This document shows, in pieces, positions 52,201 to 64,000 of a stretch of DNA of 64,000 bases (positions are counted from its first letter, which is position 1; the number at the start of each line of letters is the position of its first letter). Made by a program: the position numbers. Where the stretch lies: the NCBI RefSeq assembly GCF_056712565.1, contig NZ_CM160072.1. One strand, given 5' to 3'.

Positions 52201-55200
52201 TGAGCAGGATATGAAAGCATTACGCCCACAAATCTATGCTGCCAAATCCGAAGCTAACAGAGCCAATACGCGTCTTGATGCACAGGACTATTTCGACTGC
52301 CTGCGCTGCTTGCGTATGTACGCAGAATGATAAAAAAATCCCCGGCAGCATTCTGTTACCGGGGATATTTTTTAACGTCCAACCGCCGCTTTAGGGCGTT
52401 TCTTCGCACCAGCATTCTGCAGGCGAGATTGCGTAGACGACGCTTTTTTTGCCGTAGCAGGCGTCTGACGCTGGGTCGCCATCGGCGTATGTTTAGTCAA
52501 CGCCGGACGGGTATTGCGGTTCTGGCGGCGAGCCTCACGCATCTCTTCAATGGTTGGCGCAGGCACTAAGCAATCGCGACGGCTGCCAATCAGATGCTTT
52601 TTGCCCATCGCTTCCAGCGCCTGGCGGATTAACGGCCAGTTTGCCGGATCGTGGTAACGCAACAACGCTTTATGCAGGCGACGCTGCTTGTCGCCCTTCG
52701 GTACGAAGACGTCTTCACTCTTATAACCAATCTTCGCCAGCGGGTTTTTGCCGGTGTAATACATGGTGGTCGAGTTAGCCAGCGGCGACGGATAGAAGTT
52801 CTGCACCTGGTCGAGGCGGAAGCGATGCTTTTTCAGCCATAGCGCCAGATTCACCATATCTTCATCACGCGTACCCGGGTGCGCGGAGATGAAATACGGG
52901 ATCAGATACTGTTCTTTACCTGCCTGTTTCGAGTAAGTATCGAACAGCTCTTTAAAGCGGTCATAGCTGCCCATGCCCGGCTTCATCATCTTCGATAACG
53001 GCCCTTCTTCGGTATGTTCCGGGGCAATCTTCAGATAACCGCCAACGTGATGGGTCGCCAGCTCTTTGATATAGCGCGGATCTTCTACGGCGATGTCATA
53101 ACGCACACCAGAGGCAATCAGGATCTTTTTAATGCCTTTCAGATCGCGCGCACGGCGATAGAGGTTAATCGTCGGTTCGTGGTTAGTGTCCATATGCGGA
53201 CAAATATCCGGATAAACGCACGACAAACGACGGCAGGTTTGCTCAGCGCGTGGCGATTTGCAACGCAACATATACATGTTGGCAGTAGGCCCACCGAGAT
53301 CGGAAATCACGCCCGTAAAACCTGGAACAGTGTCGCGGATCGCTTCGATCTCATTAATAATCGAATCTTCGGAACGGCTCTGAATAATGCGCCCTTCGTG
53401 CTCGGTAATAGAACAGAAAGAGCAGCCGCCAAAGCAGCCACGCATAATGTTGACCGAGAAACGAATCATTTCGTAAGCCGGAATTCGGGCATTACCGTAA
53501 GCCGGATGCGGCACGCGCTTGTACGGCAGCGCAAAGACGCTATCCATCTCTTCGGTAGAAAGCGGAATAGCAGGCGGGTTGATCCATACATAGCGGTCGC
53601 CATGTTTTTGCATCAATGCGCGGGCGCAGCCTGGGTTAGTTTCGTGGTGCAGAATGCGCGAAGCATGGGCGTACAGCACTTTATCGCCCTTCACTTTCTC
53701 GAAAGAAGGCAGCAACACGTAGGTTTTTTCCCACGGTTTCGGGCGTGGTGGCTGCACGGTTACAGCTTTGGCTTCCTGCTTTTTCGGAGCTACCGGTTTG
53801 TTATCCGCGCACGGCAAATCTTCGCCATACGGATGCGGGATTGGGTCGATTTTCCCTGGGGTATCAAGACGGGTGGAATCCACACCGCTCCAGCCAGGCA
53901 ACGCCTCTTTTACGATAATCGCGGTATTACGCACATCGCGGATTTCACTAATCGGCTCGCCCATCGCCAGACGGTGCGCCACTTCCACCAGCGGACGCTC
54001 ACCGTTACCAAACATCAGCATGTCGGCTTTCGAATCCACCAGCACGGAACGGCGCACGGTATCCGACCAGTAATCATAGTGCGCGGTACGGCGCAGGCTG
54101 GCCTCAATACCGCCGAGGATCACCGGCACATCTTTCCACGCCTCTTTACAACGTTGGGTATAAACCAGTGTGGCGCGATCCGGACGCTTACCCGCGACAT
54201 TATCTGGCGTGTAGGCATCGTCATGACGTAAACGGCGATCGGCGGTATAGCGGTTGATCATCGAGTCCATGTTGCCAGCAGTAACACCGAAAAACAGATT
54301 CGGTTTACCCAGACGCATGAAATCGTCTTTACTGCTCCAGTCTGGCTGAGCGATGATCCCCACGCGAAAGCCCTGCGCTTCCAGCATACGACCACAAATC
54401 GCCATCCCGAAGCTTGGGTGATCAACATACGCATCACCTGTTACCAAAATGATGTCGCAGCTATCCCAGCCAAGTTGATCCATCTCTTCACGTGACATCG
54501 GCAAAAACGGTGCCGGTCCAAAACAGGCGGCCCAGTACTGCGGCCAGGAGAACAGGTCGCGATCCGGTTGGATCAGGGAGATAGAGCTCATTTTGCTTCC
54601 AGAAATGGTAAAAAAATAATCAAAGGCCGGGGATTATACGCTGTATCACACGCGGAAATGAAGTGATGTTGATGAACGGTGGCGAAATACCCTGGTGAGG
54701 TTTTTCACTGCCCGACTTGGGCAAGCACATTTAAGGCTGGCGGTATCGTGGCAACTGCCGCTACTATTTATGCCGATCAGCAACGTTCAAATCATATTGC
54801 ACGACGATCGGCTATCCGAGGACACCCACAGTAAGGCAAGGTATGGAACAGGTTATTACAAAGCGCCGCTATTACGATATTGGTCTACAGATTGAAGAGC
54901 TGCTGTATTCAGGCGTATTTAAGGCCGGAGAACGCTTACCTTCAGAACGTGAACTGAGCGAGCGGTTTAATACCAGCCGAACTACCATTCGTGAAGCCAT
55001 CATTATGCTGGAACTGAAAGGCGTATTGAATGTGAAGCAAGGGTCAGGGATTTTCTTTGTCGACTCCACCGATAAGCTCAACCAGAAATCATTAATGCCC
55101 TATTCAGAAATTGGCCCGTTTGAACTGTTACAGGCACGTCAGGTAATTGAGAGCAATATTACCGGTTTTGCAGCCAGCCAGATTAGCTTTAACGAGTTAC

Positions 55201-61200: not shown

Positions 61201-64000
61201 CTATTAGCCATTCCCTTCTTCGTGTTAGCCGGAAACATTATGAATACCGGTGGTATAGCCAGACGACTGGTTAACCTGGCGCAAGCATTAGTTGGGCGTC
61301 TTCCTGGCTCACTGGCTCATTGTAATATCCTCGCGAATACACTGTTTGGTGCGATTTCAGGTTCAGCCGTTGCGTCAGCCGCAGCGGTAGGTGGGATTAT
61401 GTCACCACTGCAAGAAAAAGAGGGATATGATCCGGCGTTTTCAGCAGCGGTTAATATTGCCTCTGCCCCCATTGGCCTGATGATCCCACCGAGCAATGTG
61501 TTGATTGTTTATTCCCTCGCCAGTGGCGGGACTTCTGTCGCTGCGTTGTTCTTAGCTGGATATCTGCCGGGCATCCTCACCGCTGTTGCCTTAATGTTTG
61601 TAGCTGCACTTTATGCACGACGTCACCATTACCCAGTGGCCGAACGCATCAATTACCGTCAGTTTTTACAGGTATTCCGCGAATCAATTCCTAGCCTGAT
61701 GCTTATTTTTATCATTATTGGCGGTATTATCGCAGGGGTATTTACGCCCACAGAAGCATCAGCAATAGCGGTAATTTATAGTTTAGCCCTGGCGATGATT
61801 TACCGGGAAATCACTCTTAAGAAGCTCAATGATATTCTGTTAGATTCGGTAGTAACCAGTTCAATTGTTCTGTTACTGGTAGGCTGTTCAATGGGAATGT
61901 CATGGGCCATGACGAATGCTGATGTTCCTGAGTTGATCAACGAACTGATTACCCGCGTTTCGGATAACAAATGGGTCATTCTGTTTATTATCAATATCAT
62001 TCTGTTGATCGTCGGTACCTTTATGGATATCACGCCGGCGATCCTGATATTTACACCTATTTTCCTGCCGATCGCCCAGCATCTGGGGATTGATCCGATT
62101 CACTTCGGCATAATTATGGTTTTCAACTTAACCATTGGCCTTTGCACACCACCTGTCGGCACCATTCTGTTTGTGGGGTGCAGCATTGGTAAGGTCAGTA
62201 TCGACAGGGCAATAAAACCATTACTGCCGATGTTTCTGGCATTGTTTGTAGTAATGGCAATTATTTGTTATTTCCCGCAGCTTAGTCTGATGCTGCCAGG
62301 ATTATTTTCGACCTGATACACAATGAAGACTGCATACTGAGTAATTTTCAATGCCCCACCACTCTGTGGGGCATTGAATTGGTCCATTACGGTACCGGAT
62401 TGACCAACAGTTGCCCAATCGAGCCACGGTCCGCCATTTCCAGCGTCTGACTGTTGAAGTAGAACGGGAAGTGCGCCCAGGAAGGCTGACCGAAATAAAC
62501 AAGCAGCTCCACTTGTCCGTCAACCCAAACGGTATCTTTCCAGCCTCTGTCTTCCGGGAACGGCATCGCGCCATTCACGTTACGGATCTGGAACATCACG
62601 CCTTCAATATGGAACGCTTGCGGCTCGTCCGCGCGCACCGTCCAGCGTTCCCACGTTCCTTGCTGCGCAGTAACATCAATACGGTTGACGTCCCACAACT
62701 GCCCATTAATCCCCGGGTCATCACCCAGGCTGATATCACGACTTCGAATCGGCGAACCGGCCATGATTTCAGTTGGCAGCAAGCGCATCGGAAGACTGTC
62801 TGTGACCAGCGGCAGAAGGCCGGTTGGGCGCAGCGTTAGCACCAGCGTAGAAACCAGAATGCTGGATGGCTCAAAGAAGCCACGAATACGATCAACAATG
62901 CTCGCCGCTTCGCCACAGGTAATCGACACTTCATCACCGTTGCTCATATCCACCAGAATCTCACGACGCTCGCCCGGTGCCAGCGAAAGTTGCTTCACCG
63001 ATACAGGAGCGGGCAGGAATCCTTGATCGCCAGAAATCACATGTAACGGGCGACCATCGCTCATCTGTAGTTGATAGCGACGAGAGTTCGACGCGTTCAA
63101 CAGACGCAAGCGCACCCAGCCACGCGAGACTTCAACGTACGGGCTTTGTACACCGTTAACCAGTAGCGTATCGCCAACAAAGCCGCCGCTTCCCGGTTCG
63201 TTATATTCTGGCGTACCAAAGTTATCCAGCCGTTTATCCTGAATAATGACAGGAAAATCATCCACACCATAATGGTTGGGGATAGGCAGCGATTTACTGA
63301 CTTCATCTTCCACCAGCCACATTCCGGCAAGGCCGTTATAAACCTGCTGAGCCGTGCGGTTGGGAGTATTGGCGTGATACCACAGAGTAGCTGCGTTCTG
63401 GCGAATGGGCAGTACGGGTGCCCAGTCAGCATTTGGCGACATCATCCGTGCCGGACCGCCCATCAGCGGGCCAGGTACCTGTAGCCCGGCCACCGTCATT
63501 GAGACATTTTCTGTCAGGCGGTTGCTGTAAATAAGCTTAACATCGTCGCCCTTCCAGACGCGGATAGTCGGCCCCAGGTAACGACCATTGATTCCCCAAA
63601 CCGACGCGCGTGTCCCTGGCGTAAATGACCAGTGCGCACGTTGTACAGTCATAAACAGCGGTTGCCCACGGCGAGATTCAAGCAGCGGCGGAACGGGTAG
63701 CGGTTGCTGTTGCCCGGCTGCGCTGGCCTTCAGGGGAACAGCGCCTGCACAAAGTGCAATCCCCGATGCCTGAATGAACTGACGCCGACTGAGTGACATA
63801 TTTGCTCCATGTAAAACTGGCTAAAGTAATACCGTGCAGGAAAGTGTTCCCCGCAAAAATACAGATTGCCGACTTAAACTTTTCCGGCGGCTTCGCGTTC
63901 TGCGACTTCTTTATCGAGCTCGGCGATTTTTTGTTCCATTATCGAACGACAATGGGCAGCCAACTCGCGAACCTGATCTTTGCCATACTGACTGACGTCA

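Follow-up and report, generated by a model that had tools for sequence, protein, structure and literature searches.

A TRAP-linked sugar-acid operon between ygiQ and ftsP of Escherichia coli that may be an old locus lost from most strains

We analysed a 64,000-nucleotide stretch of Escherichia coli DNA (the window; contig NZ_CM160072.1 of RefSeq assembly GCF_056712565.1), which is 100% identical to E. coli ATCC 11775, and focused on the cassette of seven genes that separates ygiQ from ftsP within it. The cassette encodes a regulator, three oxidoreductases and a transporter of the tripartite ATP-independent periplasmic (TRAP) type. All seven open reading frames (ORFs) are intact, lie on the plus strand between the minus-strand genes ygiQ and ftsP, and carry RefSeq annotations:

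52372-54591, minus strand: ygiQ, left flanking core gene (ORF call and RefSeq annotation)
54639-62385, no strand: whole cassette, in place of which K-12-type E. coli has 62 bp (blastn against the empty site)
54843-55592, plus strand: gntR, GntR regulator of the FadR subfamily (ORF call, NCBIfam)
55915-57387, plus strand: mdh, mannitol-dehydrogenase-family oxidoreductase, UxuB/YdfI-like (NCBIfam; PDB structure of YdfI, 4im7)
57384-58400, plus strand: zinc-dependent medium-chain dehydrogenase/reductase (MDR) family dehydrogenase (Zn-DH), LgoD/YjjN-like (identity to core E. coli enzyme, motifs)
58411-59421, plus strand: Ldh_2-family oxidoreductase, nearest to AllD (PDB and NCBIfam scores)
59494-60477, plus strand: dctP, DctP-type TRAP substrate-binding protein (SBP), orthologue of STM3169 (identity, contact residues, NCBIfam)
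60519-61001, plus strand: dctQ, TRAP small permease (PF04290 in orthologues; weak YiaM match)
61012-62316, plus strand: dctM, TRAP large permease (TIGR00786; RefSeq start)
62387-63799, minus strand: ftsP, right flanking core gene (ORF call and RefSeq annotation)

The limits of the cassette were set by blastn alignment of the window to the empty site of the K-12 derivative J53, in which ygiQ and ftsP are directly adjacent. The junctions fall at 54638/54639 and 62385/62386, and the cassette comprises 7747 bp. This bears out the initial annotation, made from the sequence alone, which had placed a seven-gene block absent from K-12 at 54592-62386; to our knowledge, K-12 has a single TRAP system. 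The cassette is also AT-richer than its flanks, as had been noted by eye, with 45.2% GC compared with 54.3% for ygiQ, 55.8% for ftsP and 50.7% for the window, which suggests an older foreign origin. No integrase or transposase occurs among the cassette ORFs or in the annotation, and the junctions lack bracketing repeats, direct or inverted, again in line with the initial annotation. More broadly, the cassette shows none of the marks of a mobile genomic island (integrase or transposase, tRNA or att site, flanking direct repeats), and an Rfam scan of 54000-63000 returned no RNA family. Intergenic spacings of -4, 10, 72, 41 and 10 bp from mdh through dctM fit a six-gene operon, the transcription units being deduced from gene spacing only. 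The 72-bp spacer between the Ldh_2 gene and dctP (59422-59493) is AT-rich and folds into two small hairpins; it could hold an internal promoter or a site of mRNA processing that lifts SBP expression relative to the enzymes.

Two alleles account for nearly all E. coli. The full-length cassette is present in 1201 of 5426 complete genomes and a K-12-type empty junction, at 95-100% identity, in 4199, which together cover 5400 of the 5426. In the ranked E. coli sample, coverage of the cassette drops from 100% to 6% with no intermediates. The block is therefore strain-variable, as the initial annotation held. The region has already been listed as 'GR 21, ygiQ..ftsP', with in-silico annotation only, in a 2026 genome paper, where it is common to APEC O1, IMT5155, RS218, IHE3034, 78-Pyelo, CFT073 and LF82 (PMC12928451).

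To compare the site between species, we scanned a single genome of each for synteny. Between ygiQ and ftsP, Escherichia whittamii, a further Escherichia species, Klebsiella spallanzanii and Klebsiella huaxiensis carry the same seven genes in the same order, the K. spallanzanii proteins being 70-91% identical to those of the window. Escherichia albertii carries the same cassette after ygiQ at 91-97% protein identity, on a contig that stops within dctQ so that dctM and ftsP are not visible. Salmonella enterica has dctPQM alone between ygiQ and ftsP. Between this strain and other Escherichia species, synonymous divergence (dS) is 0.20-0.58 for cassette genes and 0.31-0.52 for ygiQ and ftsP. The corresponding ratios of nonsynonymous to synonymous divergence (dN/dS) are 0.016-0.16 across all seven genes, which, on this measure, are under purifying selection across Escherichia species.

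These comparisons overturn the initial view of the block as an insertion. It occupies the same site in three other Escherichia and two Klebsiella species, its dS equals that of its flanks and one empty allele is found in 4199 genomes, and we therefore take the K-12 state to be a deletion. Insertion by a mobile element is ruled out by the same cross-genus synteny and matching dS, together with the lack of integrase, transposase and flanking repeats. On the simplest reading, the cassette would have been inherited vertically from at least the Escherichia ancestor and the common empty allele would stem from a single deletion. The first ~28 bp of the K-12 scar align better with the left spacer of Klebsiella and Salmonella than with phylogroup B2 sequence. 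Remnants of cassette genes were not found in the scar, its blastn matches to the cassette being chance matches of 10-13 nt only.

The last three genes encode a DctP-type TRAP transporter. DctP exceeds the NCBIfam cut-offs of NF037995 (239 bits; cut-off 50) and TIGR00787 (220 bits; cut-off 175), DctM and DctQ are encoded alongside, and the carboxylate-binding arginine R170 (and R150) is present. DctM reaches 514 bits to TIGR00786 (cut-off 268) and 288 bits to the YiaN model (cut-off 800); orthologues of DctQ carry PF04290, and the window DctQ matches YiaM weakly. The SBP is 83% identical over 327 amino acids to a 327-residue Salmonella protein, and DctQ and DctM are 71% and 88% identical to their Salmonella orthologues. 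Published stm3169 primers (Haneda et al.) map to both ends of the gene for the Salmonella SBP, which identifies it as STM3169. The identity of the two SBPs exceeds the level of ~60% that, as quoted in PMC5788505, is used for isofunctional clusters of TRAP SBPs.

STM3169 binds D-glucuronate with a dissociation constant of 0.17-0.25 µM (Herman 2020, PMC7660916). It was the only one of six compounds with confirmed binding; D-galactonate raised the thermal stability of STM3169, and fluorescence and thermophoresis gave no confirmation (PMC7660916). Glucuronate is contacted by N35, Q36, E74, R150, R170, N210 and D237 (PMC7660916), and the SBPs of E. coli and Klebsiella have all seven residues at matching positions. 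Relatives from Vibrio and Serratia (51-52% identity) keep six of the seven, with E74Q. SBP relatives of 51-57% identity are encoded in loci with UxaC (glucuronate isomerase), UxuA (mannonate dehydratase), KdgK (2-keto-3-deoxygluconate (KDG) kinase) and a β-glucuronidase-like glycoside hydrolase (GH) of family GH2. The nearest solved SBP structures score 200-230 bits and include uronate binders: 4N91 and 4MHF were crystallised with D-glucuronate (PMC7660916), 4X8R with glucuronate and 4N8Y with galacturonate (PMC11668362). The L-gulonate binder GulP of Haemophilus influenzae (4PBQ) scores 104 bits, which places the cassette SBP outside the GulP group.

Orthology to STM3169, the full set of contact residues and the uronate-binding relatives make D-glucuronate the likeliest cargo. 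By orthology, the cassette transporter probably takes up D-glucuronate at sub-micromolar affinity, a point on which we are fairly confident. The role in C6 sugar-acid use proposed in the initial annotation is sensible as a class. With an SBP orthologous to STM3169 and distant from GulP, the evidence on the transporter favours a hexuronate over the hexonates (L-gulonate, L-idonate, D-mannonate) of the initial annotation. Salmonella needs STM3169, which is under the control of ppGpp and SsrB, to survive in macrophages and to be fully virulent in mice (Haneda 2010, PMC3022708). A second TRAP system, in QMP order, was seen in Escherichia strain SCPM-O-B-8794 (L009:2845-10966). Its SBP is 53-56% identical to that of the window and has six of the seven glucuronate-contact residues, and it adjoins genes for an enoyl-CoA hydratase, a CoA-transferase and a fumarate-reductase-like flavoprotein, not sugar-acid genes.

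The three oxidoreductases could be placed by family, and the initial annotation was right at that level. Mdh scores 510 bits to the fructuronate reductase model NF011611 (cut-off 603), and so lies outside the UxuB equivalog, 481 bits to the YdfI structure and 158 bits to tagaturonate reductase. It is 60-64% identical to the first gene product of the same trio elsewhere (see below) and ~50% identical to UxuB-like enzymes of Vibrio glucuronate loci. It is predicted to be a 5-keto reductase giving the D configuration. Zn-DH shares 56% identity with a 340-residue 'galactonate oxidoreductase' of the E. coli core, a ubiquitous enzyme that, from its name, length and 6096 cluster members, we infer to be LgoD/YjjN. 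It scores 165 bits to RspB (4ilk) and 145 bits to 1E3J, so that the LgoD/YjjN-like enzyme is closer than the RspB of the initial annotation. The GHE, GAGPIG and CxxCxxC motifs are present, with zinc and NAD motifs intact. Considered as an L-gulonate 5-dehydrogenase, Zn-DH shows this resemblance to LgoD and RspB and scores below the curated models; its predicted reaction is oxidation of an L-configured C5 hydroxyl.

For the Ldh_2 enzyme, PDB comparison gives AllD as the closest relative (263 bits), and not YiaK (81 bits) as the initial annotation had it. Assignment as YiaK, the 2,3-diketo-L-gulonate reductase, was rejected on a score of 125 bits to NF009750, for which the cut-off is 316. Assignment as AllD, the ureidoglycolate dehydrogenase, was likewise rejected: the two NCBIfam scores are 340 (cut-off 356) and 318 bits (cut-off 496), and none of the sampled contexts contains allantoin genes. 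Full-length homologues are 54-82% identical, and those sampled adjoin Zn-DH. The predicted reaction is a redox step between 2-oxo and 2-hydroxy acids, the kinds of acid on which relatives of the enzyme act. Our literature search returned no paper that characterises the trio or ties these enzyme families to catabolism of agar or 3,6-anhydro-L-galactose (AHG). Bacillus subtilis YjmC/YjmD may be a parallel, to which one UniRef name also points.

The regulator and the three dehydrogenases recur as a unit away from the transporter. In fixed order, and at 60-79% identity to the window proteins, they are found in Salmonella near speA/speB (STM3084-STM3081), in a gyrB-linked island of Klebsiella quasipneumoniae and of one of the 5426 E. 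coli genomes, and in Enterobacillus, Budvicia, Vibrio agarivorans and Agarivorans. Marinomonas and the alphaproteobacterium Polycladidibacter keep the order of the trio with lower identities (47-67%). An enolase-superfamily gene of the 3,6-anhydro-L-galactonate cycloisomerase type adjoins the module in 9 of 11 sampled contexts. Two of these neighbours score 672-688 bits to PDB 5XD7, the 3,6-anhydro-α-L-galactonate cycloisomerase of Vibrio sp. EJY3, and the remainder are 62-81% identical to one of the two, the Agarivorans copy. DUF386 (anomerase-like) and KduI genes neighbour the module in several loci.

In the agar-utilisation locus of Agarivorans (L090:1-19008), the trio lies between an agarase gene and an operon for the cycloisomerase, 2-keto-3-deoxy-6-phosphogluconate (KDPG) aldolase and KDG kinase, and the locus further encodes agarases, a GH117-like hydrolase, an aldehyde dehydrogenase, a LacY-like permease and a LamB porin. 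The island between gyrB and yidB/yidA (E. coli L089:4271-11339; K. quasipneumoniae L093:4268-11363) holds six genes: GntR regulator, cycloisomerase (672 bits to 5XD7), the trio and a DgoT-like transporter of the major facilitator superfamily (MFS). Its sole E. coli carrier is strain RM9088, from a crow. The gene content of the island suggests that some enterics are able to use 3,6-anhydro-L-galactonate. In Salmonella, the cycloisomerase is reduced to pseudogene fragments (L087:5348-5938) between the GntR gene and the STM3083 homologue, beside an intact and widely conserved trio; the fragments have 72-78% amino-acid identity and lack residues ~128-280. Remnants of the cycloisomerase were not found in the ygiQ-ftsP loci of Klebsiella and Salmonella. 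The only description of STM3081 is 'putative L-lactate/malate dehydrogenase'; a role as malate dehydrogenase was set aside since its published deletion and duplication left growth on malate unaffected.

A locus of Rhodobacteraceae (L095:7970-14452) has Zn-DH and the Ldh_2 enzyme only, with no mannitol-dehydrogenase-family gene, followed by DctQMP, DUF386 and KduI, which points to these two enzymes as the module's conserved core. The SBP of this locus is 30% identical to that of the window and belongs to an unrelated SBP group, as does the trio-linked SBP of Marinomonas. The product of the cycloisomerase is 2-keto-3-deoxy-L-galactonate (L-KDGal), whose bacterial fate 'remains to be elucidated' according to a 2024 review (PMC11219438). 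Given this and the association with the cycloisomerase, the enzymes of the module are direct candidates for the L-KDGal step.

The regulator has PF00392 and PF07729 domains, by its orthologues. It resembles UxuR and ExuR, yet at 192 bits to the first (cut-off 442) and 186 bits to the second (cut-off 396) it lies outside either equivalog. It is 78-79% identical to regulators of enterobacterial cycloisomerase islands, 63% to that of the Agarivorans agar locus and 43% to that of a Vibrio glucuronate locus. As its nearest relatives are the cycloisomerase-island regulators, it belongs with the dehydrogenase module rather than with the TRAP module. Candidate signals at the cassette are as follows:

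54880-54887: fourth copy of TTGGTCTA, 37 bp inside the gntR coding sequence (exact 8-mer)
55605-55636, plus strand: hairpin with an 11-bp stem and no T-tract, just past the gntR stop (RNA fold -22.4 kcal/mol; missed by the terminator scan)
55673-55680, plus strand: TTGGTCTA box 1, candidate operator half-site (exact 8-mer search)
55857-55886, plus strand: double TTGGTCTA box with 22-bp spacing, directly upstream of mdh, candidate operator (conservation with Klebsiella and Salmonella)
62348-62377, no strand: hairpin with a 12-bp stem between the convergent dctM and ftsP (RNA fold -24.7 kcal/mol)

Of the four exact copies of the 8-mer TTGGTCTA that the 64-kb window contains, three fall within the 322-bp gntR-mdh spacer and one in gntR, where it is possibly an autoregulatory site. 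The double box is kept with the same spacing in Klebsiella, and the stm3169 promoter of Salmonella can be aligned to it (TTTGGTCTAnTGAnT...AAATTGG...AC). A double box shared by the stm3169 and mdh promoters suggests that the Salmonella arrangement derives from the seven-gene form by loss of the regulator and trio, or at least that TRAP and trio form one regulon. The hairpin past gntR is a possible boundary between gntR and the six-gene operon. A terminator consensus scan performed near chance (10 found; 8.4 expected). Undermethylated GATC sites upstream of STM3083 are reported to mediate epigenetic regulation in Salmonella (2026 preprint). Dam control of the gntR-mdh spacer (55593-55914) was rejected, as it contains no GATC site, while two such sites, at 54775 and 54806, lie between ygiQ and gntR. 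At the other end of the cassette, no two of the species compared share the sequence of the dctM-ftsP hairpin, and the K-12 scar has a different one again. The short spacer between dctM (ygiQ in K-12) and the ftsP stop (62317-62386 in the window) forms a strong hairpin in every genome, from unrelated sequence each time, and is 40-70 bp longer in E. whittamii and the other Escherichia species.

Starting from the observed architecture, distribution, synteny, purifying selection, orthology to STM3169 and association of the module with the cycloisomerase, we propose, with inferred substrates and step directions, that the cassette is an old enterobacterial sugar-acid operon, kept here and lost once in most E. 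coli. It would combine two modules that share one promoter region: a glucuronate TRAP transporter, and a repressor with a C5-inverting trio. We regard the case for this composite reading as evenly balanced. In the first module, DctPQM would import D-glucuronate. The second would consist of the GntR repressor and three NAD(P)-dependent oxidoreductases in fixed order. Zn-DH would act on a sugar acid whose C5 hydroxyl is L-configured and oxidise it there, giving a 5-keto intermediate, which Mdh would then reduce to the D configuration, a net inversion of C5 from L to D, and the Ldh_2 enzyme would carry out a redox step at C2, beside the carboxylate. Candidate inputs are L-KDGal, L-gulonate and L-galactonate, together with D-fructuronate made by core UxaC from imported glucuronate. 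The outputs, D-mannonate or KDG, would pass to core UxuA or to KdgK/Eda; the feed of D-mannonate into the Uxu route put forward in the initial annotation is possible, and exit as KDG is equally plausible. The interpretation given in that annotation is, as a whole, partly supported. D-Fructuronate, at once the oxidation product of L-gulonate and the substrate of fructuronate reductase, would link transporter and trio. The TTGGTCTA boxes upstream of mdh are the probable binding site of the repressor, operator and effector both being putative.

The chemistry has precedents. GulD oxidises L-gulonate at its L-configured C5 hydroxyl (PMC5788505), YjjN/LgoD does so with L-galactonate and is reported to act on L-gulonate too (as cited in PMC12928451), and a zinc-dependent MDR enzyme of Aquimarina is annotated as L-KDGal 5-dehydrogenase, EC 1.1.1.389 (PMC10163077). 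Reduction of the 5-keto acid to the D configuration then falls to a second enzyme. By our own derivation, C4 and C5 are configured alike in L-gulonate, L-galactonate and L-KDGal, and oxidation of L-KDGal at C5 gives the 2,5-diketo-3-deoxygluconate of the KduI/KduD route.

Several observations weigh against the two-module proposal. Glucuronate catabolism through core UxaC, UxuB and UxuA leaves Zn-DH and the Ldh_2 enzyme without an obvious job, and L-gulonate, L-galactonate, L-KDGal, KDG and 4-deoxy-uronates were all absent from the six compounds tried on STM3169. All three oxidoreductases fall below curated NCBIfam equivalog cut-offs, and hence only their reaction class can be assigned. The regulator is nearer to agar-locus (63%) than to glucuronate-locus (43%) regulators, which suits the substrate of the trio over glucuronate as inducer. 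A tblastn search with the cycloisomerase found nothing in 54001-63000 of the window, which makes the link to L-KDGal indirect. A simple promoter scan did not exceed chance (9 sites found; 15.4 expected), and we assign no promoter.

The cassette might instead serve hexonates, with TRAP importing L-gulonate or L-idonate, Zn-DH oxidising C5, Mdh converting D-fructuronate to D-mannonate for UxuA, and the Ldh_2 enzyme acting on a 2-keto precursor such as 2-keto-L-gulonate. The series 2-keto-L-gulonate, L-gulonate, D-fructuronate, D-mannonate would occupy all three enzymes, and H. influenzae offers a precedent with TRAP, Zn-DH and UxuB (PMC5788505). The resemblance of Mdh to fructuronate reductases and of Zn-DH (56%) to LgoD, reported to act on L-galactonate and L-gulonate, agrees with this, as does the omission of L-gulonate from the STM3169 ligand set. 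Yet the orthologous SBP binds D-glucuronate at ~0.2 µM and all contact residues are kept, GulP scores only 104 bits, and the presence of the cycloisomerase in 9 of 11 contexts would be unexplained. We consider a hexonate cargo unlikely. That same adjacency, with KDG kinase and aldolase genes nearby, speaks for another possibility, that the trio makes KDG from L-KDGal or from a related acid of the 2-keto-3-deoxy or 4-deoxy-uronate type, TRAP importing that acid and glucuronate being a look-alike ligand. The cassette regulator shares 63-79% identity with those encoded in these loci, DUF386 and KduI genes are neighbours in several of them, the fate of L-KDGal in bacteria is open (PMC11219438), and Salmonella, which has lost the cycloisomerase, keeps the trio as well as a TRAP promoter with the same double box. 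Set against this are binding-site residues that match glucuronate-specific SBPs, the unrelated group (30% identity) of the trio-linked SBPs of Marinomonas and Rhodobacteraceae, and the two steps that suffice for L-KDGal to KDG in flavobacteria, which leave the third enzyme unexplained. Import and conversion of such an acid by the cassette as a whole therefore seems improbable to us.

Finally, the two modules could be functionally unrelated, TRAP serving ordinary glucuronate catabolism and the trio being a relic whose pathway was lost and which has no function of its own in E. coli. Salmonella keeps the two apart, the cycloisomerase is absent here and decayed there, and most E. coli manage without the cassette. 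A relic is hard to square, however, with seven intact genes at dN/dS of 0.016-0.16, gene order kept out to Klebsiella, spacings that fit one operon and a double box common to the Salmonella TRAP promoter and the dehydrogenase promoter here; we think this very unlikely. Returning to the proposal of two modules with a shared promoter region, it can be extended into a tentative scheme that we hold to be rather less than likely. The Zn-DH/Ldh_2 pair, usually with Mdh, would be a hitherto undescribed bacterial route from L-KDGal to KDG in the catabolism of red-algal AHG by Gammaproteobacteria, re-coupled in Escherichia and Salmonella within one regulon to a glucuronate-type TRAP with a link to virulence in Salmonella, so as to exploit an acid from host or diet (glucuronate, a 4-deoxy-uronate from glycosaminoglycan or pectin, or L-KDGal).

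The cassette separates about one-fifth of complete E. coli genomes from K-12-type strains, and its carriers include the type strain as well as B2 extraintestinal and adherent-invasive reference strains. Its transporter, as the orthologue of a Salmonella virulence protein, is a candidate trait for acquiring nutrients in urine, in the gut or in host cells. The view of its evolution shifts from an acquired island to an ancestral operon deleted once, which bears on how B2 accessory genes are interpreted. The trio provides specific candidates for the L-KDGal step, which limits the engineering of red-seaweed biomass fermentation. In the literature we searched, we found no report of evidence for an ancestral locus deleted in most E. 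coli, of the E. coli transporter as an orthologue of STM3169 and the promoter architecture that the two share, or of the module and its cycloisomerase association.

The cassette is a TRAP-linked sugar-acid operon, a known kind of system. E. coli yiaK-S (YiaK, YiaL of DUF386, YiaMNO) likewise pairs an Ldh_2 oxidoreductase with a TRAP transporter for a C6 sugar acid, and DUF386 accompanies the trio in other species; the cassette differs in an Ldh_2 enzyme distant from YiaK, a DctM far below the YiaN cut-off (288 compared with 800 bits) and its downstream enzymes. The E. coli LgoR-LgoT-LgoD system (YjjM/L/N) shares a GntR-family regulator, a dehydrogenase 56% identical to Zn-DH and a downstream reductase step of the mannitol-dehydrogenase family. 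Its transporter, by contrast, is MFS and not TRAP, it has no Ldh_2 enzyme and its reductase is core UxaB, whereas cassette Mdh scores 510 bits to fructuronate and 158 bits to tagaturonate reductase. In the AHG pathway, EC 1.1.1.389 is followed by a KduD-type reductase, EC 1.1.1.127. The first enzyme is again a zinc-dependent MDR protein, and the cassette-type module adjoins cycloisomerase, kinase and aldolase genes in marine Gammaproteobacteria. The second step of the pathway is, however, catalysed by a short-chain dehydrogenase/reductase and not by a mannitol-dehydrogenase-family enzyme, and the window cassette is without cycloisomerase and AHG dehydrogenase; we know of no Ldh_2 enzyme in the AHG pathway.

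The H. influenzae L-gulonate pathway (GulPQM-GulD-UxuB-UxuA; PMC5788505) resembles the cassette in its TRAP transporter, zinc-dependent 5-dehydrogenase, fructuronate reductase and UxuR-type regulator, and in inverting C5 through a 5-keto acid. Its SBP belongs to a different isofunctional group, it has no Ldh_2 enzyme, and the E. coli cassette differs in turn in being without UxuA, KdgK and aldolase genes. The other close comparison is with Salmonella Typhimurium STM3169-STM3171. There the regulator and dehydrogenases are missing from the site, with the paralogous STM3084-3081 located near speA/speB, and an orthologous dctPQM lies at the same ygiQ-ftsP position, with the contact residues and the promoter double box in common.

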